Assembly (NCBI GenBank): GCA_050873385.1
Contig: JBNMIS010000001.1
Location: forward strand, 20,957 to 84,956
From: Bacteroidales bacterium
GTDB lineage: Bacteria; Bacteroidota; Bacteroidia; Bacteroidales; Paludibacteraceae
DNA: 64,000 bases
Reading direction: 5' to 3'
Part shown: positions 1,182 to 55,610 of the stretch, piece after piece
Position numbering within the stretch: position 1 is the stretch's first letter
Layout: each line of letters starts with the position of its first letter
The notes under the pieces: model-generated
Databases searched by the model: none
Told to the model about the DNA's origin: nothing
Seen by the model: the letters and a program-made list of their open reading frames with translations, nothing else
Made by a program: the position numbers and the translations under genes

Positions 1182-1269
1182 GCGGGAACCAACGAAACAT
1201 CCACTGACGGGACTTACGCCAAGGTGCAGGTCCCGTCGAGGGGTGCTTGAGGTGTGCTCAAATTCCCGC
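1182..1269 (+). repeat. Copy A of the interspersed 11-nt-unit intergenic element
   Basis: Units tcccgtcgagg (1231-1241), ggtgcttgagg (1242-1252) and tgtgctcaaat (1253-1263). An 8-bp internal stem gacgggac (1206-1213) / gtcccgtc (1230-1237) and a 7-bp closing stem gcgggaa (1182-1188) / ttcccgc (1263-1269) are present. Confidence 0.75.
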
Positions 1270-1485
1270 AAAACCAAATGAACCGGTATAAAACGAGAAG
1301 CAAAATGCAATATGCAGAAATGATAATTTGTACTATTTTTCCACATTCAGGTTATCACAATGCACACAAACTACAAAATATACCGTGCAAAATTTGTACA
1401 TACAGATTATTTTTGTCACCTTTGCAATGTATTTCAGTATAATGCGGCGAAATACCGCAGGTACAAACAAAAAAACGTATATCTT

Positions 1486-3333
1486 ATGAAACAAAAATTA
1501 CTTCTCGTGCTGCTAATTGCAGCCATGGTATCAGTGCCCAGCATTTCACGGGCTACCACCCTACTGACAGAGAACTTCGACTACGCTACAGGCAACCTAT
1601 ACGGTCAAGGCAAAACGATCGACCCCACAGGATTGGGATGGATTAAATATGGAGCCAACTCGGCTGATCCTATTCAAGTTGTTGACGAGGTTCTGACATA
1701 TACGGGCTATCAGGATGCTGCTACAGGCAAAGCCGTTGCGTTGAAGAAAACGAAATTGGGCGAAGATTTGCAGATTGCTTTCGCTACGGCAGAAAACGCC
1801 TTTTTGTCAGGAACTATTTATGCTGCCATGCTGGTCAAAGTAACAGATGCGACCGGTGCCGATACTTATTTTATGGGTTTTACAGGGAAGAACTATTCGG
1901 GTTGGCAAGATGGTGTAAGTGCTACTGAATACGGTCGTGCCTTTGTTATGAAAGGTTCAGACAACACCAAGTTCAAGTTTGGTGTGAGCAAGAATAATGC
2001 CACTCCGAGCGAGGCAACAGAGGAATTGAATGTGGGTGAGACTTATCTTATGGTTATCAAATATGAATTTGTGAACGGAGCAACAAATGACATCGTCACT
2101 TTGTGGGTAAATCCTGCTACAGATGCTACAACAGAACCGCAAGCGACTATCAGCGCATTGGTTTCCCAAGGCGATGCCAGCACAACGAACGGCTTGCAAG
2201 GCTTGGAACTGCGTCAAGGTACAACCGCTTCCAAGACCATGGCGGCAATGACCATTGATGCCGTGCGTGTTGCCACTGCATGGGCAGATCTCTTTGAGAC
2301 CGGCGGAGGCGATGACCCGAAACCCGTTGCGACATTGTCGATAGAAAAGGCGAGTGCCACTTCAGATTATCATGTTCAGAACGAAGCGTTTGCAGATACG
2401 TTTGTAGTGAAAGGTGCGAACCTCAGCGACGAGGCTATCACTACAACGTGTGTACATGAGGACATCACGATTACCAGAGGTGCCACTTTGGACAGAGACA
2501 AAGTGATGTCTGAGACGGGTGATACCATTATTATCAGGAATACAGCGGCAACCAATGGTGAAAACCGAACCACCATATCCGTCGTACAAGGAGAGACCAA
2601 AAAAGAAATTGCATACGCATGGACAGTAACCGCTCCGACACCGAAGTATCCTACCATAGCGGCATGGAAAGATGCTTTGCAAACCTCCACCTACGGAGAA
2701 ACGGGTCTTACGTTCAGCGGTACGGCTATCGTTACATTTGTGAAAGCAGGTATTGCTTATATAGAAGACGCGACAGGGGCTATGCGATTGGATCTCGCAT
2801 ATTTGGATTATCTGGAGACGCCCTTGGTCATAGGGGAAAAAGTTACATATATATCAGCGATTTATGAGTATAACACCTACTACGCGAAGTACTTTGAGGT
2901 GGACGGCTCGGGATATCCCACCCCAACAGTTGTAACTTTGGCAGAACTGAATGCCAACAAGGAAGACTATCTCTATCGTCTTCTAAAGATAGAGGGCGTT
3001 ACTTTTGAATCCGGAGAATTTGCCACTGCACAGACCGACTGTACACAAGGGGATGAGACAATCAAAGTGAATGCAGCAGTTCTGGCAGGGACAGAGAAAC
3101 CTGCCAAAGCCAACATCACAGGCATCTGGAACACCAGTTTCGGTTCTTATTATCTACAACTCCGCACAGACCAAGATATTGAAGCAATTGCAGGACCGCC
3201 TACGGCAATAGAGAATACAACCGTTGAGGGAGAAACAGAAATCTACACCATATCGGGCATACGCGTCTCCACCCTCCAACCAGGAGTAAACATTGTCCGC
3301 AGAGGCAACACCATCTACAAGGTGGTCCGCTAA
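1486..3333 (+). CDS. Secreted protein of unknown function with signal peptide and T9SS-type C-terminal sorting tail
   Basis: ATG at 1486 gives MKQKLLLVLLIAAMVSVPSISRA, a signal peptide; the upstream extension to 1360 has none. The C-terminus ...EIYTISGIRVSTLQPGVNIVRRGNTIYKVVR looks like a Por/T9SS type-A CTD. The middle part has Ig-like and OB-like segments, which I did not identify rigorously. Confidence 0.7.
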   Translation: MKQKLLLVLLIAAMVSVPSISRATTLLTENFDYATGNLYGQGKTIDPTGLGWIKYGANSADPIQVVDEVLTYTGYQDAATGKAVALKKTKLGEDLQIAFATAENAFLSGTIYAAMLVKVTDATGADTYFMGFTGKNYSGWQDGVSATEYGRAFVMKGSDNTKFKFGVSKNNATPSEATEELNVGETYLMVIKYEFVNGATNDIVTLWVNPATDATTEPQATISALVSQGDASTTNGLQGLELRQGTTASKTMAAMTIDAVRVATAWADLFETGGGDDPKPVATLSIEKASATSDYHVQNEAFADTFVVKGANLSDEAITTTCVHEDITITRGATLDRDKVMSETGDTIIIRNTAATNGENRTTISVVQGETKKEIAYAWTVTAPTPKYPTIAAWKDALQTSTYGETGLTFSGTAIVTFVKAGIAYIEDATGAMRLDLAYLDYLETPLVIGEKVTYISAIYEYNTYYAKYFEVDGSGYPTPTVVTLAELNANKEDYLYRLLKIEGVTFESGEFATAQTDCTQGDETIKVNAAVLAGTEKPAKANITGIWNTSFGSYYLQLRTDQDIEAIAGPPTAIENTTVEGETEIYTISGIRVSTLQPGVNIVRRGNTIYKVVR

Positions 3334-3342
3334 TCAGACTAT

Positions 3343-3381
3343 CATACCCCAGGAATATCCAAACAATACTCTTGGGGTATG
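3343..3381 (+). terminator. Intercistronic stem-loop between the two secreted-protein genes
   Basis: cataccccа-type 9-bp stem: cataccccа = cataccccа read as cataccccA (3343-3351) pairs with tggggtatg (3373-3381) around a 21-nt loop. No U tract follows, so it may be an attenuator or processing site rather than a terminator. Confidence 0.3.
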
Positions 3382-3416
3382 CTATCATTACAACAAATCT
3401 ATAACATACAGCAGTT

Positions 3417-10318: not shown

Positions 10319-10382
10319 GGAAAAAGCGGATAGAAAATCGTCAAAAAATTCCATTGTCCTTTGTATATTCAGAAAAAGGCAG

Positions 10383-10390
10383 TACTTTTG
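10383..10390 (+). promoter_or_regulatory. -7 promoter box TACTTTTG for the small lipoprotein gene
   Basis: Exact TAnnTTTG match, 35 nt upstream of the ATG at 10425. Confidence 0.55.
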
Positions 10391-10424
10391 CAGCGTTATT
10401 TTTAATCATTGTATTAATACTAAG

Positions 10425-10634
10425 ATGAAAAAGATTTTATTTGTGGCTGCAATCGCTTGCTTAGCAATGGGTTGCTGCAAGAAAGCAGAAAAGGCTGAAG
10501 GTACTTGCTGCGAGAACAAAGAGTGCTGCGAGAAAGCAGACAGTTGTGCTGCTGAGGCAGAAGTTGCTGCTGAAGACACAGTTGTCGTTGACACCGTAGC
10601 AGAAGAGGTTGCTGAGGAAGTTGTTGCAGAATAA
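10425..10634 (+). CDS. Small (69 aa) Cys-rich, acidic putative lipoprotein
   Basis: MKKILFVAAIACLAMGC is a signal peptide plus lipobox-like motif. It is followed by CKKAEKAEGTCCENKECCEKADSC and an acidic, Ala/Val/Glu-rich tail. The gene has its own promoter box and a strong terminator. Confidence 0.6.
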   Translation: MKKILFVAAIACLAMGCCKKAEKAEGTCCENKECCEKADSCAAEAEVAAEDTVVVDTVAEEVAEEVVAE

Positions 10635-10653
10635 CTCCACCGCCTTAAACAAA

Positions 10654-10690
10654 ACGGCATTACTCGAGAGAGTGATGCCGTTTTTGTTTT
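10654..10690 (+). terminator. Strong rho-independent terminator
   Basis: 12-bp stem acggcattactc / gagtgatgccgt (one G-U pair) with a GAGA tetraloop, then tttttgtttt. An A-rich tract upstream could allow bidirectional function. Confidence 0.85.
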
Positions 10691-10802
10691 TACAAGAGCC
10701 TACGGAATGAATCCAAGCAGAAGGTTCTATTGGTTGATTGAGTTTACGAGTTCCAGATATTGAGTTCATCGTACCCATGCCAAGGAAGTATTTTACCAAT
10801 TT

Positions 10803-10875
10803 GACCTCCCGTCCAGGTCGGCTTGAGGTCTCGATGAGGGTTCGTATGGTCTCTGTTTGAAACTTACGGAGTTTC
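10803..10875 (+). repeat. Copy B of the interspersed 11-nt-unit intergenic element
   Basis: tcccgtccagg (10807) | tcggcttgagg (10818) | tctcgatgagg (10829) | gttcgtatggt (10840), then tctgttt and the hairpin gaaac-ttacgga-gtttc (10859-10875). Colinear with copy C over about 75 nt. Confidence 0.8.
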
Positions 10876-11017
10876 GGAGAAAAATGACAAAGCAGCAAGT
10901 AATCCTTGACAAATCATTTACTTCCTTATCAGCACCTCTGTATAAGTTTCACTCATTTACATTCTTGCCCGAAAAGAAGATATTTTGTGCAGAAAAGACA
11001 AATCGGAACCATCTCCA

Positions 11018-11089: not shown

Positions 11090-12997
11090 TTAGATTGACT
11101 CCATATTTTTTTCATTAAAAAGTGACTTTCCTTCCGCAGTGTAGGCATAATCAATACGATCCTGATAGAATGTCTCCACCTTGCCCCGAACAATCTTCAT
11201 AGTGCTATTGACCATGTGATTCTGCTCAGTGAAAGGCTCAGGAAGGACAACAATTGCCGCAGGCAACCAACGTTCAGGGAACATTCCTTCATGAACGCCA
11301 CCACGCCGATAAGCATCCACTTCATCCTGGATTTTCTGCAACATCAGATGCTTGCCTTCTTCCGTAGCAGTGTCTTTTCCCGCACTCTTAACATAGGCCT
11401 TCAGAGCGTCCTTATTGGGCACAATGAGAACTATAGTGTAAGGATCCTGGTTGTTGTGAAGAATAACCTGCTCAATGTATTTTGAGCCGTCGGTAAGCGA
11501 ATCTTCGAATCCTTCCGGACTATATTTCTCTCCATCGGAAGAGATAAGAAGAGATTTGAAGCGGCCCGTCACATAGAGATAGTCGGGATGCTGAGCCGTA
11601 ATGTATCCCATATCACCCGTATGCAGCCAACCATCCACGATGGTATCGGCTGTAGCGGCAGGGTTCTTCCAATAGCCAGCCATGACATTCTCGCCCCGAA
11701 TAACGATTTCGCCTTTCTCTCCCGAAGCGACCTCTTTTCCCTCGGAATCGCAAATCTTGATATCCAACGGCTTGACCACACGACCCGATGAACCAAAAAT
11801 GCAGTGTCCCGGTGCATTGGCACAAATGATAGGCGTCGCCTCGGAAAGCCCGTAACCTTGGAACATGGGTATTCCTATTGCGTTGAAATAGCGCTGCAAC
11901 TCAATATCGAGCAAAGCACCACCTCCGACAAAGAACTTCATACGACCGCCAAGTCCCTGACGAACCTGCTTGAAGATGAGTTTATCGAACAATGCCAAGA
12001 ACGGCCGTTTCCATGCTTGGCAAAAACCTCCACGATTGTAGTATTCCTTGTTGTAAGAAATTGCCATATTGAGAGCAAAATTGTAGAGTTTCTCCACGGT
12101 TGCCCCTTTCTTTTGTATTCCCGTTTCGATATTCTTCTTGAAATTCCGCGCCAATGCCGGAACGGACAACATAACCATAGGTTTGATTTCCTGTATGGCG
12201 ACAGGGATATTCTTCAACGTAGCCAACGCCGTTTTACCAACCGGTACCGTAGCAATACTTCCGCCATAGGACATCATTGTATAGAATCCTGCCACATGAG
12301 CAAAGCAGTGATCCAAGGGAAGGATAATAAGCATGACATCGTCCACATCGATACTGATTACAGAATGTGCCTGCTCCACGTTTGCCGTATAGTTTCTATG
12401 TGTCAGCAAGATTCCCTTCGGGTCGGCAGTAGTTCCGGAAGTATAACTGATGTTGGCATAATCATCCGGTCCCACGCTTTGATACCGCTCCTTAAACAAA
12501 TCACCATGTTCCTTCAGAAAATCATCACCCATCTGCTGCAACATATGCAAACCCAGTTCCTTGTCCTGCAACTCCACCGGATCAAGCACTATGATTTTTT
12601 CCAAGCCAGGCAACTCGTTGACAATATGCCGAATCTTGGACAACTGCCCTGCCGAGACAATTGCAAAACGGGCATCGGAATGCTGCAAACGGAACAAAAG
12701 ATCATTGCTTTCCTCCAACTTTATGCTCAAAGGAACATTGACGCCCCCTGCATACAAAATTCCCAACTCGCCAATTACCCACATATTTCTTCCCTCTGAC
12801 AACAGAGCCACACGATCGCCTTTCTGCAATCCCAAAGCCATGAGCCCGGCACCTATACGATAAGCCTCTTCACGCGTTTGTGCAAATGTTGTTTCTCTCC
12901 ACTCTCCATCCACTTTTTCTCTGAGGAACGTATGCTCGGAGAATCGGTGCGTATAACGCTCCACAAAGTCGATGATAGTAATTTTATTTGTTTCCAT
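11090..12997 (-). CDS. Long-chain-fatty-acid--CoA ligase (AMP-dependent synthetase family)
   Basis: AMP-binding motif YTSGTTADPKGILLTHRNY. Also GYGLSEATP and the later ...TGDMGY.. block. 635 aa. Confidence 0.85.
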   Translation of the reverse strand: METNKITIIDFVERYTHRFSEHTFLREKVDGEWRETTFAQTREEAYRIGAGLMALGLQKGDRVALLSEGRNMWVIGELGILYAGGVNVPLSIKLEESNDLLFRLQHSDARFAIVSAGQLSKIRHIVNELPGLEKIIVLDPVELQDKELGLHMLQQMGDDFLKEHGDLFKERYQSVGPDDYANISYTSGTTADPKGILLTHRNYTANVEQAHSVISIDVDDVMLIILPLDHCFAHVAGFYTMMSYGGSIATVPVGKTALATLKNIPVAIQEIKPMVMLSVPALARNFKKNIETGIQKKGATVEKLYNFALNMAISYNKEYYNRGGFCQAWKRPFLALFDKLIFKQVRQGLGGRMKFFVGGGALLDIELQRYFNAIGIPMFQGYGLSEATPIICANAPGHCIFGSSGRVVKPLDIKICDSEGKEVASGEKGEIVIRGENVMAGYWKNPAATADTIVDGWLHTGDMGYITAQHPDYLYVTGRFKSLLISSDGEKYSPEGFEDSLTDGSKYIEQVILHNNQDPYTIVLIVPNKDALKAYVKSAGKDTATEEGKHLMLQKIQDEVDAYRRGGVHEGMFPERWLPAAIVVLPEPFTEQNHMVNSTMKIVRGKVETFYQDRIDYAYTAEGKSLFNEKNMESI

Positions 12998-16840: not shown

Positions 16841-17902
16841 CTATCCTTTATTTCCCCCATACATACGTTCATAATAGGACTGATAGTCGCCAGACGTCAC
16901 ATGGTCCAACCATTCCTGATTAGCAAGATACCAATCCACAGTCCGAGCCAATCCCTCCTCGAAAGTCACACAAGGTTGCCACCCCAATTCCTGCTGTAGT
17001 TTGGAAGAATTGATAGCGTAGCGGAGGTCGTGTCCTGCACGATCGGTTACAAACGTAATCAGATTTTCCGAAGTACCGGCAGGACGTCCCAATCTGTCAT
17101 CCATAATCTTACACAAGCGGCGAACAAGTTCTATATTGGTTTTTTCGTTATTACCACCAATGTTATATGTTTCTCCATCTTTCCCTTCATGGAAAATCAA
17201 ATCAATTGCGGCTGCATGATCCTCAACAAAAAGCCAATCACGCACATTCTCTCCCGTACCGTAAACAGGAATAGCCCGATTGTGCTGGATGTTGTTTATC
17301 ACCAATGGTATCAGTTTCTCAGGGAACTGGTGTGAGCCATAATTGTTAGAGCAATTGGAAATCACCACAGGGAGACCATAGGTATCATGGAAAGCGCGGA
17401 CAAAGTGATCGGAGGATGCCTTTGCCGCAGAATACGGTGAATGCGGCTGATAACGGGTTGTCTCCGTAAAAGAAGCGTCGCCTTTCTGCAATGCGCCATA
17501 CACCTCATCGGTAGAGATATGATAGAAGCGTTTTCCCCTGTAATCATTTTTCCAAGCATTTTTTGCCGCCAAAAGAAGATTACACGTACCAAACACATTT
17601 GTACGCACAAAAGCAAACGGGTCGGCGATACTTCTGTCGACATGACTTTCAGCAGCCAGATGAATGATTCCATCGGGGTTATATTGAGAAAACAACTGAT
17701 TGATCCGCTGCTCATCCGTAATATCGGCTTTCTCGAAAATATAGTTGGGCAAAGCGTCCACATCCTTCAGGTTTTCAAGATTACCCGCATAAGTAAGGAC
17801 ATCAATGTTTACGATTCTATAATCGGGATAACGTTGAACAAAGCGCCGTACCACATGTGAACCAATGAAGCCTGCGCCTCCTGTTATGAATATCGTTTTC
17901 AT
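16841..17902 (-). CDS. rfbB: dTDP-glucose 4,6-dehydratase
   Basis: MKTIFITGGAGFIGSHVV Rossmann start, YSAAKASSDH catalytic YxxxK, and typical length (353 aa). Confidence 0.9.
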   Translation of the reverse strand: MKTIFITGGAGFIGSHVVRRFVQRYPDYRIVNIDVLTYAGNLENLKDVDALPNYIFEKADITDEQRINQLFSQYNPDGIIHLAAESHVDRSIADPFAFVRTNVFGTCNLLLAAKNAWKNDYRGKRFYHISTDEVYGALQKGDASFTETTRYQPHSPYSAAKASSDHFVRAFHDTYGLPVVISNCSNNYGSHQFPEKLIPLVINNIQHNRAIPVYGTGENVRDWLFVEDHAAAIDLIFHEGKDGETYNIGGNNEKTNIELVRRLCKIMDDRLGRPAGTSENLITFVTDRAGHDLRYAINSSKLQQELGWQPCVTFEEGLARTVDWYLANQEWLDHVTSGDYQSYYERMYGGNKG

Positions 17903-17927
17903 CGTTATGAAATAATGTTTATGGTTG

Positions 17928-17935
17928 CAAAGGTA
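17928..17935 (-). promoter_or_regulatory. -7 promoter box (TACCTTTG on the minus strand) for rfbB
   Basis: caaaggta on the plus strand, 26 nt upstream of the ATG at 17902. Confidence 0.55.
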
Positions 17936-18045
17936 GCATTTTCCCCATACTTATACAAATCCGCACAAAAAGAGCGTACGAGGTTTAACCGACAAGAAAG
18001 GTTCGGGATATATCCTATAATCCAAAGAGACAGAGTGACAGCCGA

Positions 18046-18128
18046 GCCGATCTCCCGTTGAGGGGTCGGTTAGGTCTCGATGAGGAATCGTATAAATCTG
18101 TTTATTGTTTCCGGAGAATACAGAAACA
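18046..18128 (+). repeat. Copy C of the interspersed 11-nt-unit intergenic element
   Basis: tcccgttgagg (18053) | ggtcggttagg (18064) | tctcgatgagg (18075) | aatcgtataaa (18086), then tctgttt and the hairpin tgtttc-cggagaataca-gaaaca (18106-18128). Shares the 17-mer tctcccgttgaggggtc with copy E. Confidence 0.8.
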
Positions 18129-18241
18129 TCAGACTCGCCATTCAGGGATTGACAAGCAGATACGGACAATACAAAAGGTAATAGGAAAAGAGTTTATACA
18201 AAGTAATTACTCTGACGGATTGGAGTATGTCTTTTTTGTTG

Positions 18242-18249
18242 TATATTTG
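18242..18249 (+). promoter_or_regulatory. -7 promoter box TATATTTG for serB
   Basis: Exact TAnnTTTG match, 27 nt upstream of the ATG at 18276. Confidence 0.55.
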
Positions 18250-18275
18250 CACAAAGAATTCAGCAATCAGACCTT

Positions 18276-19502
18276 ATGAAACAGCACGAAATCATTCTCA
18301 TCACCATTTCAGGAGAAGATCACCCCGGCGTCACATCGTCAATCACACAGATACTGGGGAAATACAATGCCGTTATTCTGGATATCGGGCAAGCCAACCT
18401 ACATCACCAACTGTCGTTAGGGCTGATGTTCAAAATAGAGAATACCCTCCACTCGGGAGATATGCTCAAGGAGATTCTGTTCCGCTGTACGGAATTAGGG
18501 ATGCAAGTCCGATTTACCCCGATTTCCGATGAAGAATATTCAGCATGGGTTATGCGACACGGCAAGCCCCGTCATGTTGTCACGCTGTTGGGACAAGAAA
18601 TCACGGCAAAACAGATATCTCTTGTAACGAAGGCCGTTGCAGACAGGAATCTGAACATAGACTCCATCACCCGTTTGACAGGAAGACCTCCTCTGAACCC
18701 TCCCACGACAGAACATCCACGCTCCTGTGTGGAATTCTCAGTAAGAGGCGACGTCCAAGACAAACACGCTCTCGCAGCGGAATTTCTGGAAATATCCGCC
18801 AAAGAAGGGATTGACATTTCTTTCCAACGCGATGATATATACCGTCGCAACAGACGATTGATCTGTTTTGACATGGATTCCACCCTGATAAAGACGGAAG
18901 TAATCGATGAATTGGCAGACAGAGCGGGGGTAGGAGCGGAAGTGAGAGCCATCACAGAATCTGCCATGCGCGGCGAAATAGACTTCAAGGAGAGTTTCAC
19001 ACGCCGTGTATCCCTATTGAAAGGATTAGACGAATCGGTAATGAAGGACATTGCCGAGCATCTCCCAATCATGGAAGGCGCAGACCGCGTGATGTCCGTA
19101 CTGAAGAAATGCGGCATGAAAATAGCCATTCTATCGGGTGGTTTTACGTATTTCGGCAAGTATCTGCAAGAACGATTCGGCGTGGACTATGTCTATGCAA
19201 ACAACTTAGAGATAGTTGACGGGAAACTTACAGGACGTTATACAGGCGACATCGTTGACGGGAAGAGAAAAGCAGAACTGCTCAACCTGATCGCACAAGT
19301 GGAAAAAATAGATCTGGCACAAGTGATTGCCGTAGGCGACGGCGCAAACGACTTACCCATGCTGAACATCGCAGGCTTAGGCATCGCTTTCCATGCAAAA
19401 CCCAAAGTGAAAGCCAACGCCCAACAATCCATTTCCACAATAGGTTTGGACGGAATACTCTATTTTCTGGGATTCCGAGATGTACATCTTGAGACCCTAT
19501 AA
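18276..19502 (+). CDS. serB: Phosphoserine phosphatase with N-terminal ACT-like domains
   Basis: HAD motif I CFDMDSTLI, later GDGANDLPM, and an N-terminal ACT-like ITISGEDHPGVTS. Confidence 0.85.
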   Translation: MKQHEIILITISGEDHPGVTSSITQILGKYNAVILDIGQANLHHQLSLGLMFKIENTLHSGDMLKEILFRCTELGMQVRFTPISDEEYSAWVMRHGKPRHVVTLLGQEITAKQISLVTKAVADRNLNIDSITRLTGRPPLNPPTTEHPRSCVEFSVRGDVQDKHALAAEFLEISAKEGIDISFQRDDIYRRNRRLICFDMDSTLIKTEVIDELADRAGVGAEVRAITESAMRGEIDFKESFTRRVSLLKGLDESVMKDIAEHLPIMEGADRVMSVLKKCGMKIAILSGGFTYFGKYLQERFGVDYVYANNLEIVDGKLTGRYTGDIVDGKRKAELLNLIAQVEKIDLAQVIAVGDGANDLPMLNIAGLGIAFHAKPKVKANAQQSISTIGLDGILYFLGFRDVHLETL

Positions 19503-28743: not shown

Positions 28744-28772
28744 AGATTTTCCAGAAGTCAAAGAAAAAAAGG

Positions 28773-28809
28773 CTGCCACTCTCCTCAAAAGGATGGTGGC
28801 AGTTTTTTT
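28773..28809 (+). terminator. Rho-independent terminator of the outer-membrane protein gene
   Basis: ctgccac (28773-28779) pairs with gtggcag (28796-28802), with inner tcc/gga pairs, followed by ttttttt (28803-28809). Confidence 0.8.
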
Positions 28810-28824
28810 ACAATATACAGAACA

Positions 28825-28868
28825 TCTCCTTCAGGGGTGCTTCAGGTCCCGTTGAGGTTGCCTTGAAA
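28825..28868 (+). repeat. Copy D of the interspersed 11-nt-unit intergenic element
   Basis: tctccttcagg (28825) | ggtgcttcagg (28836) | tcccgttgagg (28847) | ttgccttgaaa (28858). Begins 16 nt after the terminator T-run. Confidence 0.8.
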
Positions 28869-29618
28869 CACCAAAGTATTTACGGACAAGTTATCCACAA
28901 CATACAATACATCATGGCAGGGAAACCGACATACCATAATAAAGGCATGGCAATCGCTCCAAAACCAAAGTATAGACGTAATAGAGAGTAGGGATTGGAG
29001 AGCGGGAGAGTATATAGATACTATCCATAGGACATACTACTTCATTACACACAGGAGAGGTGGTTATAGAAATCTTAGTTGTCTGAGAAGTTCCATGACA
29101 TTAAACAGACCTTTCTTTTGTGTGAGCAAAAGAAAAGAAACCAAGGGGACTTCCACAACTTCCTACAGAGGGGAATTATATCCCACTTTACTCATCAGAA
29201 AACTCCATGTCGGGTGAAAAGAAGACGCACCGTCACAATGCCAGAAGCAGCAGCACCGACAACCCGCATAATTGCACTTGTTTTTCTTCGGGAATTCATC
29301 TATAATTATCGGAACAACCATCCGAGTACTATCCTTTTTATGCGGTTCCCCTGTAGCAAGAAAGACGCCTAACAGTTTGCGAGAACAGAAAACAGAACAA
29401 ACGAAAAACACCACCCACTTACCACTTTTGTATTTCCACCCTCAGAAATCTCCGCCACAAAGCAAATTATCATTCAACATACAACACAGACAATCCGACA
29501 CAGACATAATCATAATCCACCGCAGGTTAAGGCTTGTGCCATTTGCAAATATGGAGAACTTTATCGAACTTTGCGGCATCCTTATGCATATCAAACAAGA
29601 CACCCTGAATATCACGCC

Positions 29619-36016: not shown

Positions 36017-36028
36017 AACACAATCAGA

Positions 36029-36068
36029 GAAAACAAATCCCTGCTTAACACCACGTCAAGCAGGGATT
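36029..36068 (-). terminator. Intercistronic stem-loop / attenuator between the DUF47 gene and the PiT gene
   Basis: Perfect 11-bp stem aatccctgctt (36036-36046) / aagcagggatt (36058-36068). On the minus strand it is followed by tgttttctct. Confidence 0.5.
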
Positions 36069-36073
36069 GCTGT

Positions 36074-36724
36074 TTATGCGTACTTTACAATTATAGTCTT
36101 TAACGTTTTACCCACACTATTAGCACGGTCGGTAGCCTCCTCCATGCATGACATTATTTCCTTTATCTTGATAAGTTCGCGCGCATCTTCTTCGTTTTCG
36201 AACAGGTCTTTCACGAAATTATCGTACACATCGTCTCCTTCGTGTTCAAGTGTATGCAGTTTGCTGCACTGCTCGAGTGCCACCTGCGGCTTTTTGTTGA
36301 TAGTTCTGAGTTCTTTGAAAGCGACATTGATCGCCTTTGCCCCTTCCAGAATAATCTCAGCCATGTGCATTGCCTTATTCGGCATGCTCTTGGGCTGATA
36401 GAGCATCGTGCGTTTTGCCGACGAATTAATCAAATCCATCACATCGTCCACCATGTCGCACAATTTGTGCATATCCTCCCTGTCAAACGGCGTAACGAAC
36501 GTATCGTTGAGTTCCACAAAGATGTTCTGCGTGATATCATCGCAAGCCGTTTCCAGCGCCTTAATCTTTGCATACAGGTCGTTTTGCCGCGCCAAATCCG
36601 TTTCAGAAATCATTTGAGCAAACAAGTCCGCCGCCTCAACGATGTTTTGCGATACCTGGCGGAATTGCGGAAAGAACTTATCCTCTTCAGGAAGAAAGAT
36701 GGAAAAGATGGAGTTTATTGACAT
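36074..36724 (-). CDS. DUF47-family phosphate transport regulator (PhoU-like, PiT-associated)
   Basis: All-helical 216-aa protein (..FFPQFRQ..,..TPFDREDMH..) immediately upstream of a PiT transporter, which is the conserved pairing for this family. Confidence 0.8.
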   Translation of the reverse strand: MSINSIFSIFLPEEDKFFPQFRQVSQNIVEAADLFAQMISETDLARQNDLYAKIKALETACDDITQNIFVELNDTFVTPFDREDMHKLCDMVDDVMDLINSSAKRTMLYQPKSMPNKAMHMAEIILEGAKAINVAFKELRTINKKPQVALEQCSKLHTLEHEGDDVYDNFVKDLFENEEDARELIKIKEIMSCMEEATDRANSVGKTLKTIIVKYA

Positions 36725-36791
36725 ACAGGGTCGTAATTCGTTTCTTACTATCCGGCTTCAATCAACAAGACAGAGCCAAAAATTCATGTTA

Positions 36792-36799
36792 CAAAATTA
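36792..36799 (-). promoter_or_regulatory. -7 promoter box (TAATTTTG on the minus strand) for the DUF47-PiT operon
   Basis: caaaatta on the plus strand, 68 nt upstream of the ATG at 36724. Confidence 0.5.
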
Positions 36800-36906
36800 C
36801 TATATTTTCCATAGTTACACAAGAAACCACCCTGGAAATCGGCAAAGAGAAGCCATAGTTTGGCAAATGTTCCCCCTCCATAAGACCGCCGCGAACAGTC
36901 CGGAAG

Positions 36907-36981
36907 GCTTGACGAGGTATGATTTGGCCCCTCTGTCTCCCGTTGAGGGGTCGACGAGACCTGCTTGAGGAGTCGAAGAAC
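36907..36981 (+). repeat. Copy E of the interspersed 11-nt-unit intergenic element
   Basis: tcccgttgagg (36938) | ggtcgacgaga (36949) | cctgcttgagg (36960) | agtcgaagaac (36971). Preceded by a related ggcttgacgagg (36907-36918). Confidence 0.8.
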
Positions 36982-37038
36982 ACGTGACAGAAAGGCAGGC
37001 AATCCAAAGCAAGGCACCCTCATGGAAAACAAGGAGGT

Positions 37039-37075
37039 ATCCCGCTGACGGCTATCCGCAACGGGGCACCGCCAG
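37039..37075 (-). repeat. Possible degenerate inverted copy (E2) of the element
   Basis: The minus strand reads ggtgc|cccgttgcgg|atagccgtcag. The plus-strand text atcccgctgacggctatccgcaacgg resembles the left arm of copy A (atccactgacgggacttacgccaagg). Confidence 0.3.
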
Positions 37076-37112
37076 CAAACAGAACAAGGATCCGTACACA
37101 CGGAAACAGAGC

Positions 37113-37149
37113 AAAAAAATCCCCTTTGCAAGACAAGTCTTACAAAGGG
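37113..37149 (-). terminator. Rho-independent terminator of uxaA
   Basis: ccctttg (37122-37128) pairs with caaaggg (37143-37149), extended by inner aaga/tctt pairs. On the minus strand it is followed by attttttt. Confidence 0.8.
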
Positions 37150-37187
37150 AGACACAAACAACAAATAACATCAATTATGACATGAAA

Positions 37188-38681
37188 CTACAATGTCACT
37201 CCATTCTTGAAGATTGCAATTTCACGGTAGGATTTACGCTCATTGTTGGTATATTCGCCACTCGCCACCTTGACAACACAGTCCACAAAACGTTCAAAGA
37301 CCTGCATAACAGGTTCATCTTCAACCATCGTCCCTGCATTGAAGTCAATCCATGCAGGCTTATTGTTTGCCAAAGCAGAATTGGTCGAGACCTTAAGCGT
37401 AGGCACAAAAGTACCAAACGGCGTGCCTCTTCCCGTTGTAAACAATACGAGATGGCAGCCTGCCGCCGCGAGAGCAGAAGCCGCAACAAGGTCATTACCC
37501 GGTGCAGAAAGAAGATTAAGCCCCTTCGTTTCCAGCCGTTCACCATAAGCCAAGACGCCAGATACAGGCGCCTTCCCGCATTTCTGCGTACATCCCAACG
37601 CCTTTTCTTCCAATGTTGATATGCCGCCTGCCTTATTACCCGGAGACGGATTTTCACCTACAGGTTCACCATGGGAAAGAAAATATGCCTTGAAATCATT
37701 AATAAGACTCACTGTTTGGTCGAACAGTTCCCGCGTACGGCAACGGTTCATCAAAATAGTTTCCGCTCCAAACATTTCCGGAACTTCGGTAAGAACCGTA
37801 GTACCTCCCTGTTCCACCAAGAAATCGGAGAACATGCCCAACAAAGGATTCGCCGTTATTCCAGAGAAACCATCGGATCCGCCACATTTAAGCCCCACCT
37901 TCAATTCGGACAACGGGATATCTTCCCTCCTATCTTCAGCCGCCTTTCTGTACAATTCTCTCAAGACAGGCATACAATACTCCACCTCATCCCCCTGTAC
38001 CTTCTGCGCCACCACAAAACGGACGCGCTCCGTATTATAATCTCCGCAAAATTCACGGAAGACATCAGGCTGATTGTTTTCGCAACCGAGTCCTACCACC
38101 AATACGGCTCCTGCATTGGGATGAAGCACCATATCACGCAATATCTTTTTGGTATTTTCGTGGTCATCCCCCAATTGCGAGCAGCCATAGTTGTGCGGAA
38201 AAGCAACAATGGCGTCCACACCCCGGCTCTTCGTTTCCTGACGGAGACGTTCCGCCAACTGCGAAACGATACCATTCACACAACCGACAGTAGGAATTAT
38301 CCAAACTTCATTGCGGATACCGACTTGCCCGTCAGCACGCCGATAGCCCTTGAAAGAAAGTTTCTTTGCAGGCAATGAAGGTTTTTCGAACTTGACAGGC
38401 TTGTATTCATAGTTGAGCAGTCCTGCCAAATTGGTCTGAATATTATGTTCATTCACCCAATCTCCTGCAGAAATCCGGCAGCGTGTATGCCCAATGGGGT
38501 AACCATACTTGATTACATTTTCCCCCTCGGCGAAATCCTTCAATGCGATTTTATGCCCCGCAGGAATATCTTGACGCAAAACAATGCTGATTCCATCGAC
38601 AGAAACTACAGAACCTGCAGTTTGAGGAACAATTGCCACCGCCACATTATCGACAGGGTTGATACGAAAAACAGGTGTCAT
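37188..38681 (-). CDS. uxaA: Altronate dehydratase
   Basis: N-terminal SAF-like domain (NPVDNVAVA..AGHKIAL), then GYRRADGQVGIRNEVWIIPTVGCVN and the C-terminal UxaA block. The ATG at 38681 (MTPVFRINP) is preferred over the longer ORF start at 38714. Confidence 0.88.
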   Translation of the reverse strand: MTPVFRINPVDNVAVAIVPQTAGSVVSVDGISIVLRQDIPAGHKIALKDFAEGENVIKYGYPIGHTRCRISAGDWVNEHNIQTNLAGLLNYEYKPVKFEKPSLPAKKLSFKGYRRADGQVGIRNEVWIIPTVGCVNGIVSQLAERLRQETKSRGVDAIVAFPHNYGCSQLGDDHENTKKILRDMVLHPNAGAVLVVGLGCENNQPDVFREFCGDYNTERVRFVVAQKVQGDEVEYCMPVLRELYRKAAEDRREDIPLSELKVGLKCGGSDGFSGITANPLLGMFSDFLVEQGGTTVLTEVPEMFGAETILMNRCRTRELFDQTVSLINDFKAYFLSHGEPVGENPSPGNKAGGISTLEEKALGCTQKCGKAPVSGVLAYGERLETKGLNLLSAPGNDLVAASALAAAGCHLVLFTTGRGTPFGTFVPTLKVSTNSALANNKPAWIDFNAGTMVEDEPVMQVFERFVDCVVKVASGEYTNNERKSYREIAIFKNGVTL

Positions 38682-46187: not shown

Positions 46188-46195
46188 CAAAGGTA
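46188..46195 (-). promoter_or_regulatory. -7 promoter box (TACCTTTG on the minus strand) for the nucleoside kinase operon
   Basis: caaaggta on the plus strand, 22 nt upstream of the ATG at 46166. Confidence 0.55.
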
Positions 46196-46288
46196 CTACA
46201 TATTTTCCATTTCTACAATATAGACAACCCGTTCCGTCGATGACAGCGGCACAAGCCGGAGGGACAGCACCATGGAAGAGTCGGAAAT

Positions 46289-46332
46289 TTCTGTTCAGGA
46301 GTGCTTCAGGTCTCGATGAGACCGGCTAAAAC
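46289..46332 (+). repeat. Copy F of the interspersed 11-nt-unit intergenic element
   Basis: ttctgttcagg (46289) | agtgcttcagg (46300) | tctcgatgaga (46311) | ccggctaaaac (46322). Contains the perfect hairpin ggtctc-gat-gagacc (46309-46323). Closest to copy D. Confidence 0.8.
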
Positions 46333-46502
46333 AAAGCCACCTTTTCCCACGTTTCCAACAAAAGGAAACCGCGGAAAAATCTTACATAAAACATCTTCCA
46401 AAAAAAGCAATCAGCCCGTTGTCCGCAAGTAAGTTATTCACTTCCGCCGGATTTACAATCATCCGCACAGAATTACACATACAGAAGAAAAGCCACAGAT
46501 AA

Positions 46503-47624
46503 TCACTCCAATGCCCGATAGACACCGCCCGGAAGCGATTTGACAATTCCCCGGAACTCCATCTGAAGCAACAAGGAAGCCACCTTTGAGTAAGGCATTT
46601 TTGTCTCCATTACCAAGAGATTGATATGCAAGCCTTCCATATTTTCATGGAGCAAACGCAACAGATTATTCTCCTCATCGCTCAAATCGGTAAACAATTT
46701 CGTTTGCAAAGATGCCAGTGAGGCAACAGTCTCCCACTGCATCGCTTGCAGAATCTCATGACCATTTTCCACCAACATCGCTTTATTTTGCTTGACAAGC
46801 GCATTGCAACCCCGGGAACAAATATCATCGATCCGACCGGGAACCGCGAATACATCTCTGTCGTACGAATTCGCCATTTCGGCAGTCAACAAAGCCCCAC
46901 CCTTTTCCTTGGATTCGACCACCAGAATAGCATCACTCAATCCTGCTATAATACGATTTCTTGCCACAAAATTCTGCCGATCAGGATTGGTACCAGCCAT
47001 ATATTCTGTCAGTATTCCCCCATTTTGCAACGCATCTACAGCCGTTTTCCGGTGCACAGCAGGATATATCCGGTCCAATCCGTGCCCCGGAATAATGAAG
47101 GTAGGAATCCCCGCCTCAATAGCAGCACGATGCGCCGTAATATCAATACCATAAGCCAAACCGCTTACAATGGTGAGGTTTTTCGTCAAAGAAGCCATCT
47201 CAAGAATCATCTTGCGACATTCGTCTTTCCCCCGTTCCGTAGGAACCCGCGTTCCCACAACCGCCAAGAAATGTCCTTCATTCGGCTTGATATTCCCCTT
47301 GGCAAACAAGAGCAGCGGAGCATCCGGACATTCCCGAAGACGGTAAGGATAGTTATCGTCTTGATAGTAAAATGTGGAAAGATGGTGAGAAAATATGAAA
47401 TCCAACTCTTTATCCGCTCTTCTCAAAGCATTCTCGCGTTGGCTGAGAATATCTTGTACCAAACTCGGGCGTATGTTAGGGATTGATTCCAGTTCTTCCT
47501 GAGATGCCATAAACACATCACGAGCAGAACCAAAGAACTCAATCAGAGCCTTGGCATGTCTCAAGCCGATACGGGGCAACAAACCAACCGCTATCTGATA
47601 TCTCAGTTGTTCTTCATTTTGCAT
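46503..47624 (-). CDS. dprA: DNA-processing protein DprA
   Basis: SAM-like N-terminus, Rossmann-like core (VVGTR..., VSGLAYGIDITAHRAA, GGALLTA) and a C-terminal winged-helix-like region. Confidence 0.88.
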   Translation of the reverse strand: MQNEEQLRYQIAVGLLPRIGLRHAKALIEFFGSARDVFMASQEELESIPNIRPSLVQDILSQRENALRRADKELDFIFSHHLSTFYYQDDNYPYRLRECPDAPLLLFAKGNIKPNEGHFLAVVGTRVPTERGKDECRKMILEMASLTKNLTIVSGLAYGIDITAHRAAIEAGIPTFIIPGHGLDRIYPAVHRKTAVDALQNGGILTEYMAGTNPDRQNFVARNRIIAGLSDAILVVESKEKGGALLTAEMANSYDRDVFAVPGRIDDICSRGCNALVKQNKAMLVENGHEILQAMQWETVASLASLQTKLFTDLSDEENNLLRLLHENMEGLHINLLVMETKMPYSKVASLLLQMEFRGIVKSLPGGVYRALE

Positions 47625-54949: not shown

Positions 54950-54952
54950 GTT

Positions 54953-55378
54953 ATGTGGTGGATTCCTGTTGTCATATTTGTAGGGTTGGGACTGGCCACA
55001 GCCGTTGCCTTGGAACTCAGAGAACGCAAACGAAGCCGGAACTGCGTGGAAAATTCCGGATCCGCCGCTAAGTCGTCAGTCTCAGATGGGGAATGTTGTG
55101 GGCAGCATGCTGTGTGTGAACGCGATCTCCTCCTGAACAAAAAAGATGAGATAATCTATTATGATGATGATGAATTGGATGCTCTGTCGGGTATTTCTCC
55201 CGATGAATACGATGAAAAACAATTGCACGAATTGGAAGATGTCTTCTATACTCTTCAGGAAAAAGATGTTGCAGGTTGGCTTAGAAGCCTGCAGTTGCGC
55301 AACATCGCTCTGCCGGATGAACTGCGCGACGAAGCGCTCCTTATCGTGAGTGAACGCCGCCGTTCCGGCAATCAATGA
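54953..55378 (+). CDS. Small membrane-anchored hypothetical protein (141 aa)
   Basis: N-terminal TM helix WWIPVVIFVGLGLATAVAL, a Cys cluster DGECCGQHAVCE, then an acidic helical tail. Starts 3 nt after the parE stop. Confidence 0.55.
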   Translation: MWWIPVVIFVGLGLATAVALELRERKRSRNCVENSGSAAKSSVSDGECCGQHAVCERDLLLNKKDEIIYYDDDELDALSGISPDEYDEKQLHELEDVFYTLQEKDVAGWLRSLQLRNIALPDELRDEALLIVSERRRSGNQ

Positions 55379-55456
55379 CCAACTCTTTAACCTGCTTGGC
55401 AGAGGTGCCTCCGTCTTTGCTTCGGATTGTTCTTCATATCGCTCTTCGTTGTGGAA

Positions 55457-55500
55457 AATCGAGGGGACCTCAACGACCCCCGAAGCCGACCTCGACGGGT
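55457..55500 (-). repeat. Copy G of the interspersed 11-nt-unit intergenic element (the only clear minus-strand copy)
   Basis: The reverse complement reads acccgtcgagg | tcggcttcggg | ggtcgttgagg | tcccctcgatt (55500 down to 55457). Confidence 0.8.
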
Positions 55501-55571
55501 ACCCCGAAAAACACAAATGACAGGACATAAAAAATCAATTCCGTTAACTTGTGTATATCAGGAAATATAAT

Positions 55572-55579
55572 TAGTTTTG
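55572..55579 (+). promoter_or_regulatory. -7 promoter box TAGTTTTG for the mreBCD-mrdA-rodA operon
   Basis: Exact TAnnTTTG match, 85 nt upstream of the mreB ATG at 55664. Confidence 0.5.
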
Positions 55580-55580
55580 C

Positions 55581-55610
55581 GGTCGGTTAGGTAGGGGCTT
55601 GTGCTCTTGC
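55581..55610 (+). repeat. Partial or degenerate copy H of the element
   Basis: ggtcggttagg (55581-55591) is identical to the second unit of copy C. The following taggggcttgtgctcttgc resembles aggggtgcttgaggtgtgctc of copy A. Confidence 0.4.

Follow-up and report, generated by a model that had tools for sequence, protein, structure and literature searches.

A mosaic family of 11-nt-unit intergenic repeats in an uncultured, Paludibacteraceae-related Bacteroidales lineage

What are the short G-rich arrays that recur between genes of an uncultured, Paludibacteraceae-related Bacteroidales species, and do they serve the cell? Our window, a stretch of 64,000 nt from this host, contains seven of them, each about 40 nt long and built from 11-nt units that follow one another head to tail and end in SAGG. 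The initial annotation, which first pointed them out, offered a REP/BIME- or MITE-like repeat, a phased protein-binding array and a paralogous small-RNA family as candidate explanations. We argue that the arrays are probably (at a rough probability of 0.6) members of a non-coding, non-autonomous mosaic interspersed repeat family of the kind represented by BrickBuilt, BOX or BIME.

Seven arrays between credible genes

All seven sequences reported by the initial annotation are present at their positions, letter for letter. They are given here with their profile E-values, together with one leader module.

Copy A, 1231..1274, plus strand: solo array TCCCGTCGAGG GGTGCTTGAGG with a decayed third unit TGTGCTCAAAT (E 9.3e-8); the terminator hairpin of a fumarase-like gene (1111-1162) lies on one side and a gene start (1360) on the other.
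Leader of B, 10742..10806, plus strand: diverged TACGA-type module followed by TTTACCAATTT.
Copy B, 10807..10850, plus strand: TCCCGTCCAGG TCGGCTTGAGG TCTCGATGAGG GTTCGTA (E 9.7e-9); between a small lipoprotein ORF (10425-10634, plus) and the 3' end of an AMP-binding gene (11090-12997, minus).
Copy C, 18053..18096, plus strand: TCCCGTTGAGG GGTCGGTTAGG TCTCGATGAGG AATCGTA (E 1.9e-9), with a T/C polymorphism among strains in unit 2; in the divergent region between an epimerase gene (minus) and serB (plus).
Copy D, 28825..28868, plus strand: TCTCCTTCAGG GGTGCTTCAGG TCCCGTTGAGG TTGCCTTGAAA (E 1.3e-8); begins 16 nt past the terminator of an outer-membrane-protein gene.
Copy E, 36938..36981, plus strand: TCCCGTTGAGG GGTCGACGAGA CCTGCTTGAGG AGTCGAA (E 3.9e-7); flanked by two minus-strand genes, a PhoU_div gene with its start and uxaA with its 3' end.
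Copy F, 46289..46332, plus strand: TTCTGTTCAGG AGTGCTTCAGG TCTCGATGAGA CCGGCTA (E 1.3e-8); downstream of dprA (minus strand).
Copy G, 55457..55500, minus strand (the only such copy): ACCCGTCGAGG TCGGCTTCGGG GGTCGTTGAGG TCCCCT (E 9e-7); between a gene of 141 aa and the mreB promoter.

Searching the window with an nhmmer profile made from the seven 44-mers returned exactly these seven matches (E 1.9e-9 to 9e-7), followed by nothing better than noise (E 1.8). The word TCCCGTYGAGG, with up to one mismatch, was observed seven times where 1.2 occurrences are expected, a count reached by none of 100 shuffles; it includes a chance match in coding DNA at 14184, catches copy D via its third unit and misses copy F. 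The 17-mer that C and E were said to share is real and in fact measures 18 identical bases (18051-18068 and 36936-36953). When the window was compared with itself, this word and hairpins at gene ends, which we read as terminators, were the only repeats. The shortness and G-richness of the units, together with the single-unit match in coding DNA, might suggest a chance or low-complexity artefact, but this reading is refuted by the gap between the seventh and the next profile match, by the shuffles, and by the recurrence of the same grammar in at least 51 further copies of a related genome and at orthologous sites; we give it practically no credence.

The arrays were also said to be confined to intergenic DNA, and indeed none of the seven falls in a credible gene. 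The only ORFs that overlap them (10461-10898, minus; 36642-36968, plus; 36784-37164, minus; 36984-37619, plus; 55082-55528, minus) are all without a Pfam match, and on contigs of the same species the gene caller places no gene at B, C or D. The neighbours are unrelated housekeeping genes. By our own reading of the ORF list, roughly seven in ten of the window's longer intergenic regions contain an array.

Unit grammar, mosaic architecture and host range

A close relative, "Bacteroidales bacterium UBA7569", with 93-97% amino-acid and ~85% nucleotide identity to the host, carries at least 51 distinct copies in 382 kb of sampled loci, bringing the sequence covered from both organisms to about 0.5 Mb. 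All but one lie outside credible genes, the exception overlapping an OEP-like ORF at the ORF's 3' end. The homogeneity of this sample is overstated because the pattern used to collect it demanded perfect units.

Taken together, the window and UBA7569 provide 58 arrays of three to five units, and all 189 units keep a strict 11-nt phase, which bears out the head-to-tail organization first described for the window. Positions A9, G10 and G11 are invariant in 183-187 of the 189 units. Arrays open with a dedicated first unit, TCYCGTYSAGG, continue with a few shuffled inner types (GGTGCTTSAGG, GGTCGWTGAGG, TCGGCTTGAGG and TCYCGATGAGG) and close sharply with a truncated last unit, GGTCGTA or YCGGCTA. 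The variable part of the units thus falls into a few discrete types rather than scattering around one motif, a pattern that suggests descent from a few templates.

The UBA7569 arrays form one module of a larger mosaic, alongside an AT-rich TACGAT module, small CCCCTC/GAGGGG hairpins and a linker of sequence TTTACCGACTTCATTTTCATC. A leader of ~60-100 nt is present in roughly 60% of these copies and a tail module in about 20-30%, and the TACGAT module flanks arrays on both sides in one orientation, i.e., as a direct and not an inverted repeat. The window copies are mostly bare "solo" arrays.

How widely is the family distributed? A strict-pattern scan of 185,579 species genomes gave 36 matches, which by our own estimate is about the chance expectation, and the only clustered ones were six in UBA7569. 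Of the 46 loci returned by a metagenome scan, 42 came from the ENA assemblies ERZ808277/8, several with copies identical in sequence to UBA7569 loci; the four matches outside these assemblies (L059, L064, L090 and L093) were not counted, being at chance level or unplaced, with a best E of 2e-4 (L064). More distant relatives (SerB 77-90% or DprA 74-78% identical), sampled over about 92 kb in the partly overlapping contigs L047-L051 and L100-L101, contained no copy except a partial array at the F site. Viral contigs and the phage and plasmid collections gave no match, and a phage, plasmid or viral origin was rejected; a literature search on intergenic repeats in Paludibacteraceae turned up nothing. 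As judged from these sequence searches, the family is restricted to a narrow, genus-level clade of uncultured, Paludibacteraceae-related Bacteroidales.

Placement, orthologous sites and competing readings

The initial annotation counted six of seven window copies in the same orientation. The count is correct, but a 6:1 bias is not significant and the larger sample follows no orientation rule: the four possible configurations of array and flanking genes occur 20, 12, 10 and 9 times, and the distance to the downstream gene ranges from 6 to >1000 nt, with all four configurations represented. Divergent, convergent and co-directional regions all carry copies. Where a window copy lies between genes of the same direction, it is located between the 3' end or terminator of the upstream gene and the next start (five of five).

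Nor does a link with the replication strand hold, since the G-rich strand of UBA7569 loci falls on the inferred lagging and leading strands at 17:15. A replication origin near 50.7 kb with replication-polar arrays was rejected because the third-codon-position GC skew of the plus strand is negative throughout the window (-0.09 to -0.28 per 8 kb), with no switch. Raw local GC skew held no information on array orientation. Runs of like orientation along contigs, such as six of six plus in ERZ808277.8 and eight of nine minus in ERZ808278.3, are a weak effect, with same versus different neighbours at about 25:15 by our own tally. Copies of the family have come to lie, in both orientations, in intergenic DNA that tolerates them.

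Could the elements act as RNA, as the proposal of a paralogous small-RNA family implied? On this view, either the G-rich strand might work, with its repeated SD-like GAGG motifs, as a small RNA or protein sponge, or the C-rich strand as a Rho-utilisation-type or 3'-UTR element. The repeated unpaired GAGG motifs of the arrays recall sponge-type RNAs in their general layout, and the complementary strand shows CCUC every 11 nt and far more C than G. Of 55 scorable cases, 34 (four of seven in the window) have the 3'-side neighbour gene on the opposite strand, so that read-through from it would transcribe the C-rich strand. However, 34 of 55 is not significantly different from one half (our own estimate, two-sided p about 0.1), and copies are found equally in divergent, convergent and co-directional regions, with no consistent placement rule. 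Rfam gave no match at any window copy, whether at the gathering threshold or with E relaxed to 5, and none at the composite locus L098 at E up to 1; a weak CsrC match in the window (E 3.6, 11261-11396) is away from all elements. From the 7 copies and the 58 copies, RNAalifold gave only a 3-bp helix and then nothing, leaving the consensus structure empty, and single-strand folding was no more stable than that of shuffles on both strands (mean z -0.43 and +0.20). By our own reading, the flanks share neither a TAnnTTTG/TTTG promoter at a fixed upstream distance nor a downstream terminator, and the leader has no convincing Bacteroidetes TTTG or TAnnTTTG motif, TACGATTTTG being wrongly spaced. CsrB/RsmY-type sponges display repeated GGA motifs in hairpin loops, have a promoter and terminator of their own and occur in genomes with CsrA/RsmA; the arrays form no hairpins, nor did our reading of the flanks reveal a shared promoter or terminator. 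We consider a role as RNA improbable, and the small-RNA proposal was not borne out.

Five of the seven window sites (B to F) are occupied at matching positions in the ~85%-identical, UBA7569-like relative, with arrays 75-86% identical and adjacent non-coding DNA mostly 11-68% identical; promoters and terminators aside, the arrays are the best-conserved local non-coding DNA. The orthologue of B (L060:4764) is 82% identical and keeps the leader, which resembles the family leader of that species and matches at 15-18 of 25 positions per 25-column bin, versus 3-9 of 25 just upstream. At the C site, L098 carries two arrays, one truncated and one full, along with a 123-nt mosaic, and the single chimeric array of the window is as expected from deletion between direct repeats. 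L102 holds the orthologues of D (86% identical, including the odd fourth unit) and of E (75% identical, with a leader of TACGAT and hairpin modules). The orthologous array of F is 75% identical; orthologues of this copy lie in L099 and in L100, where the contig end cuts the array. The orthologous arrays at D and F differ by whole units. Arrays C, D and F coincide with gene-order breaks relative to a sister species.

Site G provides a presence/absence difference, being filled in the window and empty in the sister species L047, which lacks the stretch holding the array (a 119-column gap in one alignment, about 66 nt in another). This pair, the only one available and with diverged flanks, shows no clear target-site duplication. 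Two further candidate comparisons were rejected: the D-site regions of the window and L047 are not homologous, and in L100 the contig stops before mreB, with no array within 220 nt. Most window sites are older than the split from the ~85%-identical relative, with gain or loss at deeper nodes.

Classical MITEs, that is, deletion derivatives of insertion sequences with terminal inverted repeats and target-site duplications that are mobilised in trans by a parent transposase, would account for the difference at site G and perhaps for a contig that breaks within an array. The succession of tandem units, leader and tail likewise recalls BrickBuilt and MITEPgRS of Porphyromonas gingivalis, which have IS5-type ends (PMC4596501). 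Against this origin, no inverted repeats surround the window copies, and such strong palindromes with short spacing as do occur are all hairpins just downstream of neighbouring genes, again read as terminators; the flanking TACGAT modules of UBA7569 are direct repeats; the filled and empty versions of G show no clear duplication; and no transposase gene was seen in the part of the window's ORFs that was checked. A MITE origin in this strict sense seems to us to have little chance.

Retention at the same sites also bears on the idea of phased platforms for a lineage-specific DNA-binding protein, selected at transcription-unit boundaries and presenting one GAGG core per turn on one face of the DNA. 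Possible binders would include nucleoid-associated proteins, winged-helix regulators that oligomerise head to tail, and domesticated recombinases. The strict phase of the 189 units and the near-invariance of A9/G10/G11 agree with such a role, as do the five of seven sites kept in place in the ~85%-identical species, the standing of the arrays there as the best-conserved local non-coding DNA other than promoters and terminators, and the position of all five copies between same-direction genes; independence of orientation would be acceptable for an architectural site. On the other hand, the family is absent from sister species that have the same genes, making any role dispensable and young. Moreover, the discrete unit types look descended from a few templates, the arrays travel with unrelated repeat modules in UBA7569, and no candidate protein was identified. 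What stands of the earlier protein-binding suggestion is the 11-nt phase and the conservation above the flanks, the latter of which purifying selection would also predict; gene conversion among repeats would fit both equally well. We regard protein binding as unlikely, though the most serious rival. A variant that we hold to be, if anything, a shade more doubtful sees the arrays as selected docking sites of three to five turns for a clade-specific DNA- or RNA-binding protein that marks transcription-unit boundaries. Retention at the same position with intact grammar over ~15% divergence, while flanks decay, would then be purifying selection, with the TACGAT and hairpin modules of UBA7569 as further parts of one nucleoprotein site. 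If true, the family would offer an easy entry to a DNA-organising protein in Bacteroidales.

We favour the mosaic interspersed repeat family on the combined evidence of a real family with narrow distribution, found between credible genes only, with modular shuffled units, orientation independent of both genes (20/12/10/9) and replication (17:15), whole-unit differences between the orthologous D and F arrays, no RNA match or fold, a G site that is filled here and empty in L047, and a C site that is a mosaic in L098 versus one chimeric array in the window. Counting against it are the lack of any mobilising enzyme, target-site duplication or terminal repeats among our findings, the positional stability of five of seven sites across ~15% nucleotide divergence, the array-over-flank identity (75-86% versus 11-68%) that purifying selection would also give, and an occupancy of the longer intergenic regions (~7/10) that is high for pure junk. 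Under this preferred reading, new sites would be seeded by a putative copy-and-paste duplication, and the 11-bp units may then undergo slippage, unequal recombination and gene conversion with one another, processes that would remodel the copies while keeping them similar and would reduce composite elements to the bare solo arrays of the window. The arrays would have no sequence-specific cellular function beyond incidental effects, for example as recombination substrates.

The practical value is modest. A repeat family and its grammar are newly defined for an uncultured Bacteroidales lineage of gut and anaerobic-digester type. Gene annotation benefits, as the arrays are overlapped by spurious ORFs of 100-150 aa, and assembly is concerned too, in that at least one contig ends inside an array. 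For the study of repeat evolution, the family may be a clean example of composite mosaics collapsing to solo arrays by recombination between short phased units.

Comparison with known systems

Direct-repeat binding arrays with a period of ~11 bp are known from the Pho boxes of PhoB/OmpR-family regulators and from the parC iterons bound by ParR on plasmid R1. Their protein partners are known and their sites are few: a handful of promoters, or a single plasmid locus. The window family has the same head-to-tail 11-bp units, one per helical turn, but its copies number in the dozens, lie either way round and occupy every type of intergenic region. OmpR/PhoB-type operators have two or more direct repeats of ~11 bp at a set position from a promoter, in a regulon whose genes are functionally linked. 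The window family has their period, whereas its gene distance and orientation vary and its neighbours are unrelated housekeeping genes.

The BOX elements of Streptococcus pneumoniae consist of boxA, a variable number of boxB units of about 45 nt, and boxC, and are predicted to fold stably. Like them, the window family is modular, intergenic, non-coding and lineage-specific, with tandem middle modules between distinct ends; it differs in having 11-nt units and no conserved fold.

Cyanobacterial STRR heptamers and TAACTGA direct repeats (MacGregor 2015, PMC4679880) likewise place a few short head-to-tail units at many intergenic sites, in patchy lineages that include some Bacteroidetes. Their units are 7 nt long, near-identical and often just upstream of start codons (PMC4679880), whereas ours are 11 nt long and of several types, with fixed first and last members and no fixed distance to genes.

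According to PMC2817692 and PMC3733652, REPs and BIMEs are binding sites for several proteins. REPs are imperfect palindromes of 20-40 bp that can form a stem-loop and carry a GTAG or CGTC tag at one end, and they are linked to RAYT (Y1 transposase) genes, which they flank. The window family resembles the REP/BIME elements of enterobacteria and pseudomonads in being high-copy, genus-restricted, extragenic, mosaic with other motifs and located between transcription units (at least 51 copies, accompanied by TACGAT and hairpin modules, in 382 kb of UBA7569 loci), and differs in that its arrays are direct repeats, with no inverted repeat within or around them. The tag (PMC3733652) is likewise not found: arrays open with TCYCGTYSAGG and finish in GGTCGTA or YCGGCTA, and they have no palindrome that could bear one. 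The label "REP/BIME- or MITE-like" therefore holds for the narrow lineage, the intergenic siting, the multiple copies and the BIME-like mosaic module in the relative, but not for the REP palindrome or the terminal inverted repeats of MITEs.

The closest described analogue is BrickBuilt (and MITEPgRS/MITE464) of P. gingivalis, likewise of the order Bacteroidales (Klein et al. 2015, PMC4596501). BrickBuilt is always intergenic, occurs in tens of copies in one species and its nearest relative, and consists of imperfect head-to-tail units without spacers, with a leader and tail that are present, partial or absent depending on the copy; some loci are conserved between sister species (PMC4596501). 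Compared by layout and not by unit sequence, the two families have in common their organization, including spacer-free units and a variably present leader and tail, their intergenic siting and their limited host range. They differ in the unit, which is 23 nt in BrickBuilt (41 nt in PgRS) versus 11 nt here, in the number of units (1-22.8 versus 3-5), and in the IS5-type terminal inverted repeats (GAGACCTTTGCA) and occasional target duplications of BrickBuilt (PMC4596501), neither of which was found in the window family. Specialised first and last units and discrete inner types further set the window family apart. Its sequence is new, but its kind, that of mosaic, "junk-like" intergenic repeats, is a familiar one.

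Seven intergenic arrays in the window

The initial annotation had described seven copies of an intergenic element built from 11-nt units. All seven proved to lie at the quoted coordinates with the quoted sequences, each forming an array of ~40 nt:

A: 1231, plus strand, array of head-to-tail 11-nt units
B: 10807, plus strand, array
C: 18053, plus strand, array
D: 28825, plus strand, array
E: 36938, plus strand, array
F: 46289, plus strand, array
G: 55500-55457, minus strand, array

When the window was searched with the first-unit word TCCCGTYGAGG, allowing ≤1 mismatch, we obtained 7 matches versus 1.2 expected, a number reached in 0 of 100 shuffles; copy F escapes the pattern, and the match at 14184 is a chance occurrence within coding DNA. 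The seven 44-mers, combined into a profile, recovered exactly the seven copies (E values of 1.9e-9 to 9e-7), and nothing else in the 64 kb scored better than an E value of 1.8. In a multiple alignment that included the flanks, similarity among the window copies was limited to ~40 nt, and self-comparison of the window revealed no other interspersed repeats. As originally proposed, all copies (7/7) fall outside credible genes: the few ORFs overlapping arrays have no Pfam matches, and same-species contigs have no gene calls at B, C and D.

The surrounding gene content is that of ordinary Bacteroidota housekeeping genes, with a type IX secretion signal, and relatives of SerB and DprA at 60-77% identity carry Paludibacteraceae or Paludibacter labels. 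The species recurs in metagenome assemblies only, as ten contigs 99.8% identical to the window, among which B, C and D are fixed and a T/C difference in unit 2 of C is the sole polymorphism in these copies. A close relative is Bacteroidales bacterium UBA7569, accession DLLF01, as judged by a common ABC-transporter block with 93-97% protein identity and by ~85% identity of aligned DNA.

Anatomy of the arrays

Unit statistics were drawn from 58 arrays with 189 units, comprising 51 non-redundant UBA7569 copies plus the seven window copies. All keep a strict 11-nt phase over three to five units, with A, G and G at positions 9 to 11 in 183-187 of the 189 units and G or C at position 8. There is a dedicated first unit, TCTCGTTGAGG in 24 copies and TCYCGTYSAGG in general form, followed by inner units of a few discrete types, in which the position 3-7 cores TGCTT, TCGTT, GGCTT and TCGAT follow GG or TC and whose order varies between copies. 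The last unit is cut short to GGTCGTA/G or YCGGCTA, and most arrays then pass directly into unique DNA.

In UBA7569, ~60% of copies have a further 60-100 nt in common upstream, a leader consisting of ATTTACGATTTGACAATTTACGATGTACGATTTTG and then cTTTACCGACTTCATTTTCATC. The same AT-rich TACGAT module is also found 3′ of array tails, so arrays and TACGAT modules alternate as direct repeats, in places separated by small CCCCTC...GAGGGG hairpins and further short motifs. In the window, copies consist of little more than the array itself, with a recognisable, diverged leader in B only. A perfect SAGG ending (S, G or C) occurs in 16 of 21 window units versus 147 of 153 UBA7569 units, the latter sample being pattern-ascertained and thus biased.

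At loci of UBA7569 and of the metagenomes ERZ808277 and ERZ808278 (L023, L024, L030, L078, L091, L094 and others), intergenic DNA is crowded with additional short repeat modules, none of which was seen in the window: ATTTACGATTTGACAATTTACGATGTACGATTTTG, CCCCTCCAAAGGAGGGG-type hairpins, ATAGACGTTCTAGTTGATCGAGAA, a 3′ extension TTTTGCGAGGAAGATnAnAGGGAGGACAAAGAATCCGCC, and ~9-nt periodic GGACnAATGAG runs. At one such locus (L076:5569-6009, minus strand), a UBA7569 copy together with its TACGAT leader extends over the last ~45 codons of an ORF, the upstream part of which belongs by sequence match to the outer-membrane efflux proteins (OEP, E 6.9e-9). Either the 3′ end of the gene was replaced by the repeat or the ORF is a gene fragment. 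A sister species free of the family has simple intergenic tandem repeats of its own (L047:16945-17709), namely GTTGATWAGTT-like runs and three copies of CCTATATTCGT.

Distribution and orthologous sites

A strict three-unit pattern, run against one genome per species for 185,579 species, gave 36 matches, about our own estimate of the chance expectation. The sole clustered matches were six in UBA7569, at loci that also score well by profile. A second pattern, applied to JGI/ENA metagenome contigs, yielded 46 loci, 42 of them from ERZ808277 and ERZ808278, where several copies are sequence-identical to UBA7569 loci. No copies were present in 80.6 kb around serB of relatives with SerB identities of 90, 89, 80 and 77%, and ~10.5 kb from a relative with a DprA identity of 78% holds just an incomplete array, at the F site. 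Scans of viral contigs, phage genomes and plasmids were negative. The family is thus genuine, multi-copy and confined to roughly one genus.

In the ~85%-identical, UBA7569-like species, five of the seven window sites are filled, with position and orientation unchanged.

Orthologues of window sites in relatives, by locus
Site B: L060
Site C: L098
Site D: L102, with an odd fourth unit in common (TTGCCTTGAAA vs TGTCCTTGAAG)
Site E: L102
Site F: L099, plus a partial array at a contig end in the more distant L100

Identity between orthologous arrays is 75-86%, as against mostly 11-68% in adjoining non-coding DNA; since any two family members are already ~61-75% identical, this excess is modest, and gene conversion among copies would predict it equally well. 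Orthologues also differ by whole units, with an extra unit in the L102 counterpart of D and a different third unit in F. Where the window has one chimeric array at site C, the relative shows a truncated array, a 123-nt mosaic and a full array. Deletion between two direct arrays is expected to leave such a footprint, and so, in the opposite direction, is a cassette inserted into an array. The window has a copy at site G that the sister species locus L047 lacks, the missing stretch amounting to 119 alignment columns or ~66 nt in two comparisons; this comparison revealed no convincing target duplication. Gene order relative to L047 and to L049, from a second sister species, breaks exactly at the intergenic regions 17902-18276 (C), 28743-29571 (D) and 46190-46503 (F), which may just reflect accumulation of arrays where insertions are tolerated.

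Strict phasing with the helix and conservation of position would both suit a selected, phased docking site for a protein. We nevertheless consider such a site rather unlikely, given that the family is missing from sister species and that its units fall into discrete types and travel with other modules.

Several features of the neighbourhoods were also recorded. In L047, dprA lies directly next to serB and recJ next to the LTD gene; L049 has serB inverted with respect to the epimerase block. Phosphate-transporter-like and PhoU_div (DUF47) genes beside array E (34976-36724) are missing from the UBA7569-like species (L102:15377-15963), where glycerate kinase is directly followed by the array-bearing intergenic region and then uxaA. 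The Logan contig of the more distant relative (DprA 78%) terminates within the array 3′ of dprA (L100:9270-9296), which suggests that short-read assemblies are broken by the repeat. The region 10348-10690 holds a small ORF (10425-10634, plus strand, 69 aa) encoding MKKILFVAAIACLAMGCCKK..., whose product looks like a lipoprotein signal followed by an acidic Cys-/Glu-rich tail. A textbook Bacteroidetes promoter (TTTG ... TActTTTG) and a terminator hairpin (10651-10684) accompany this ORF. Comparison with the UBA7569-like species shows nearly 100% conservation of the promoter and of the N-terminal half, and a 21-nt indel within the repetitive tail.

Structure, orientation and known repeat families

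The suggestion of a small-RNA family fared poorly. No copy has an Rfam match, either at the gathering threshold or at E values up to 5 (window) or up to 1 (composite locus); RNAalifold returned only a 3-bp helix for the seven copies and nothing for 58, and the folding energies of single sequences are unremarkable on either strand (mean z -0.43 and +0.20). The sole point in favour of action through RNA is that the C-rich strand is the sense strand downstream of a gene in 34/55 cases, a non-significant figure, and we regard this role as highly improbable. Separately, a very strong hairpin 3′ of a fumarase-like gene (1111-1162, 22-bp stem, 95% complementary) yields weak, spurious Rfam matches to mir-802 and the plastid psbA 3′ UTR.

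Orientation follows neither genes nor replication. Relative to the G-rich strand, flanking genes run opposite/opposite in 20 cases, same/opposite in 12, opposite/same in 10 and same/same in 9 (a tally that includes a few duplicate loci), and the next gene lies 6 to >1000 nt away; arrays have no tie to transcription direction. Third-codon-position GC skew is negative on the plus strand across the whole window (-0.09 to -0.28 per 8 kb), so that all of it belongs to a single replichore, whose leading strand is the minus strand. Across UBA7569 loci, the G-rich strand falls on the inferred lagging strand in 17 cases and on the leading strand in 15, and there is no tie to replication. The 6:1 strand bias noted at the outset is thus correct as a count and unremarkable as a signal, there being no orientation rule in the larger sample.

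An origin near 50.7 kb was rejected for lack of a replichore switch within the window. With the minus strand leading, the 13-kb plus-strand block that starts at 50.8 kb (NIF3, a gyrB/parE-like gene, mreB and others) runs head-on to replication. Perfect DnaA-box nonamers (TTATCCACA) occur at 28891 (+), 48072 (+) and 7665 (-), one of them 23 nt downstream of array D; scattered without clustering, they provide no evidence for an origin.

Of the REP/BIME- or MITE-like identity first considered, the interspersed mosaic repeat survives. The REP palindrome is absent, and a classical MITE is unlikely on present evidence, since terminal inverted repeats do not flank the window arrays and the UBA7569 flanking modules are direct repeats; we give very little credence to a MITE with a putative parent insertion sequence. 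Our preferred reading, to which we assign a probability of roughly 60%, is a non-autonomous, non-coding mosaic interspersed repeat family, spread by copying, reshaped by recombination and serving no host function. The data directly establish the family with its unit grammar, its range and its orthologous sites, as well as its lack of RNA or orientation signatures; both the route of copying and the absence of a host role are inferred. The family would spread inside one Bacteroidales lineage by some copy mechanism, insertions being tolerated solely between transcription units, while slippage, unequal recombination and gene conversion between 11-bp units would continually reshape and homogenise arrays. 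The window would then hold solo arrays that are old, fixed in position and partly decayed.

Among described repeats, the closest in kind is BrickBuilt of Porphyromonas gingivalis, which likewise has imperfect head-to-tail units, a variably present leader and tail, an always intergenic location and tens of copies, and is common only to P. gingivalis and a sister species (PMC4596501). It differs in its 23-nt unit, its copy number per array and its IS5-type inverted ends (PMC4596501). Looser analogues are BOX, BIME and the dispersed heptamer arrays of cyanobacteria, Beggiatoaceae and some Bacteroidetes (PMC4679880). The arrays are thus a new sequence family of an already known kind of repeat, whose chief use lies in annotation, in assembly and in the study of repeat dynamics.
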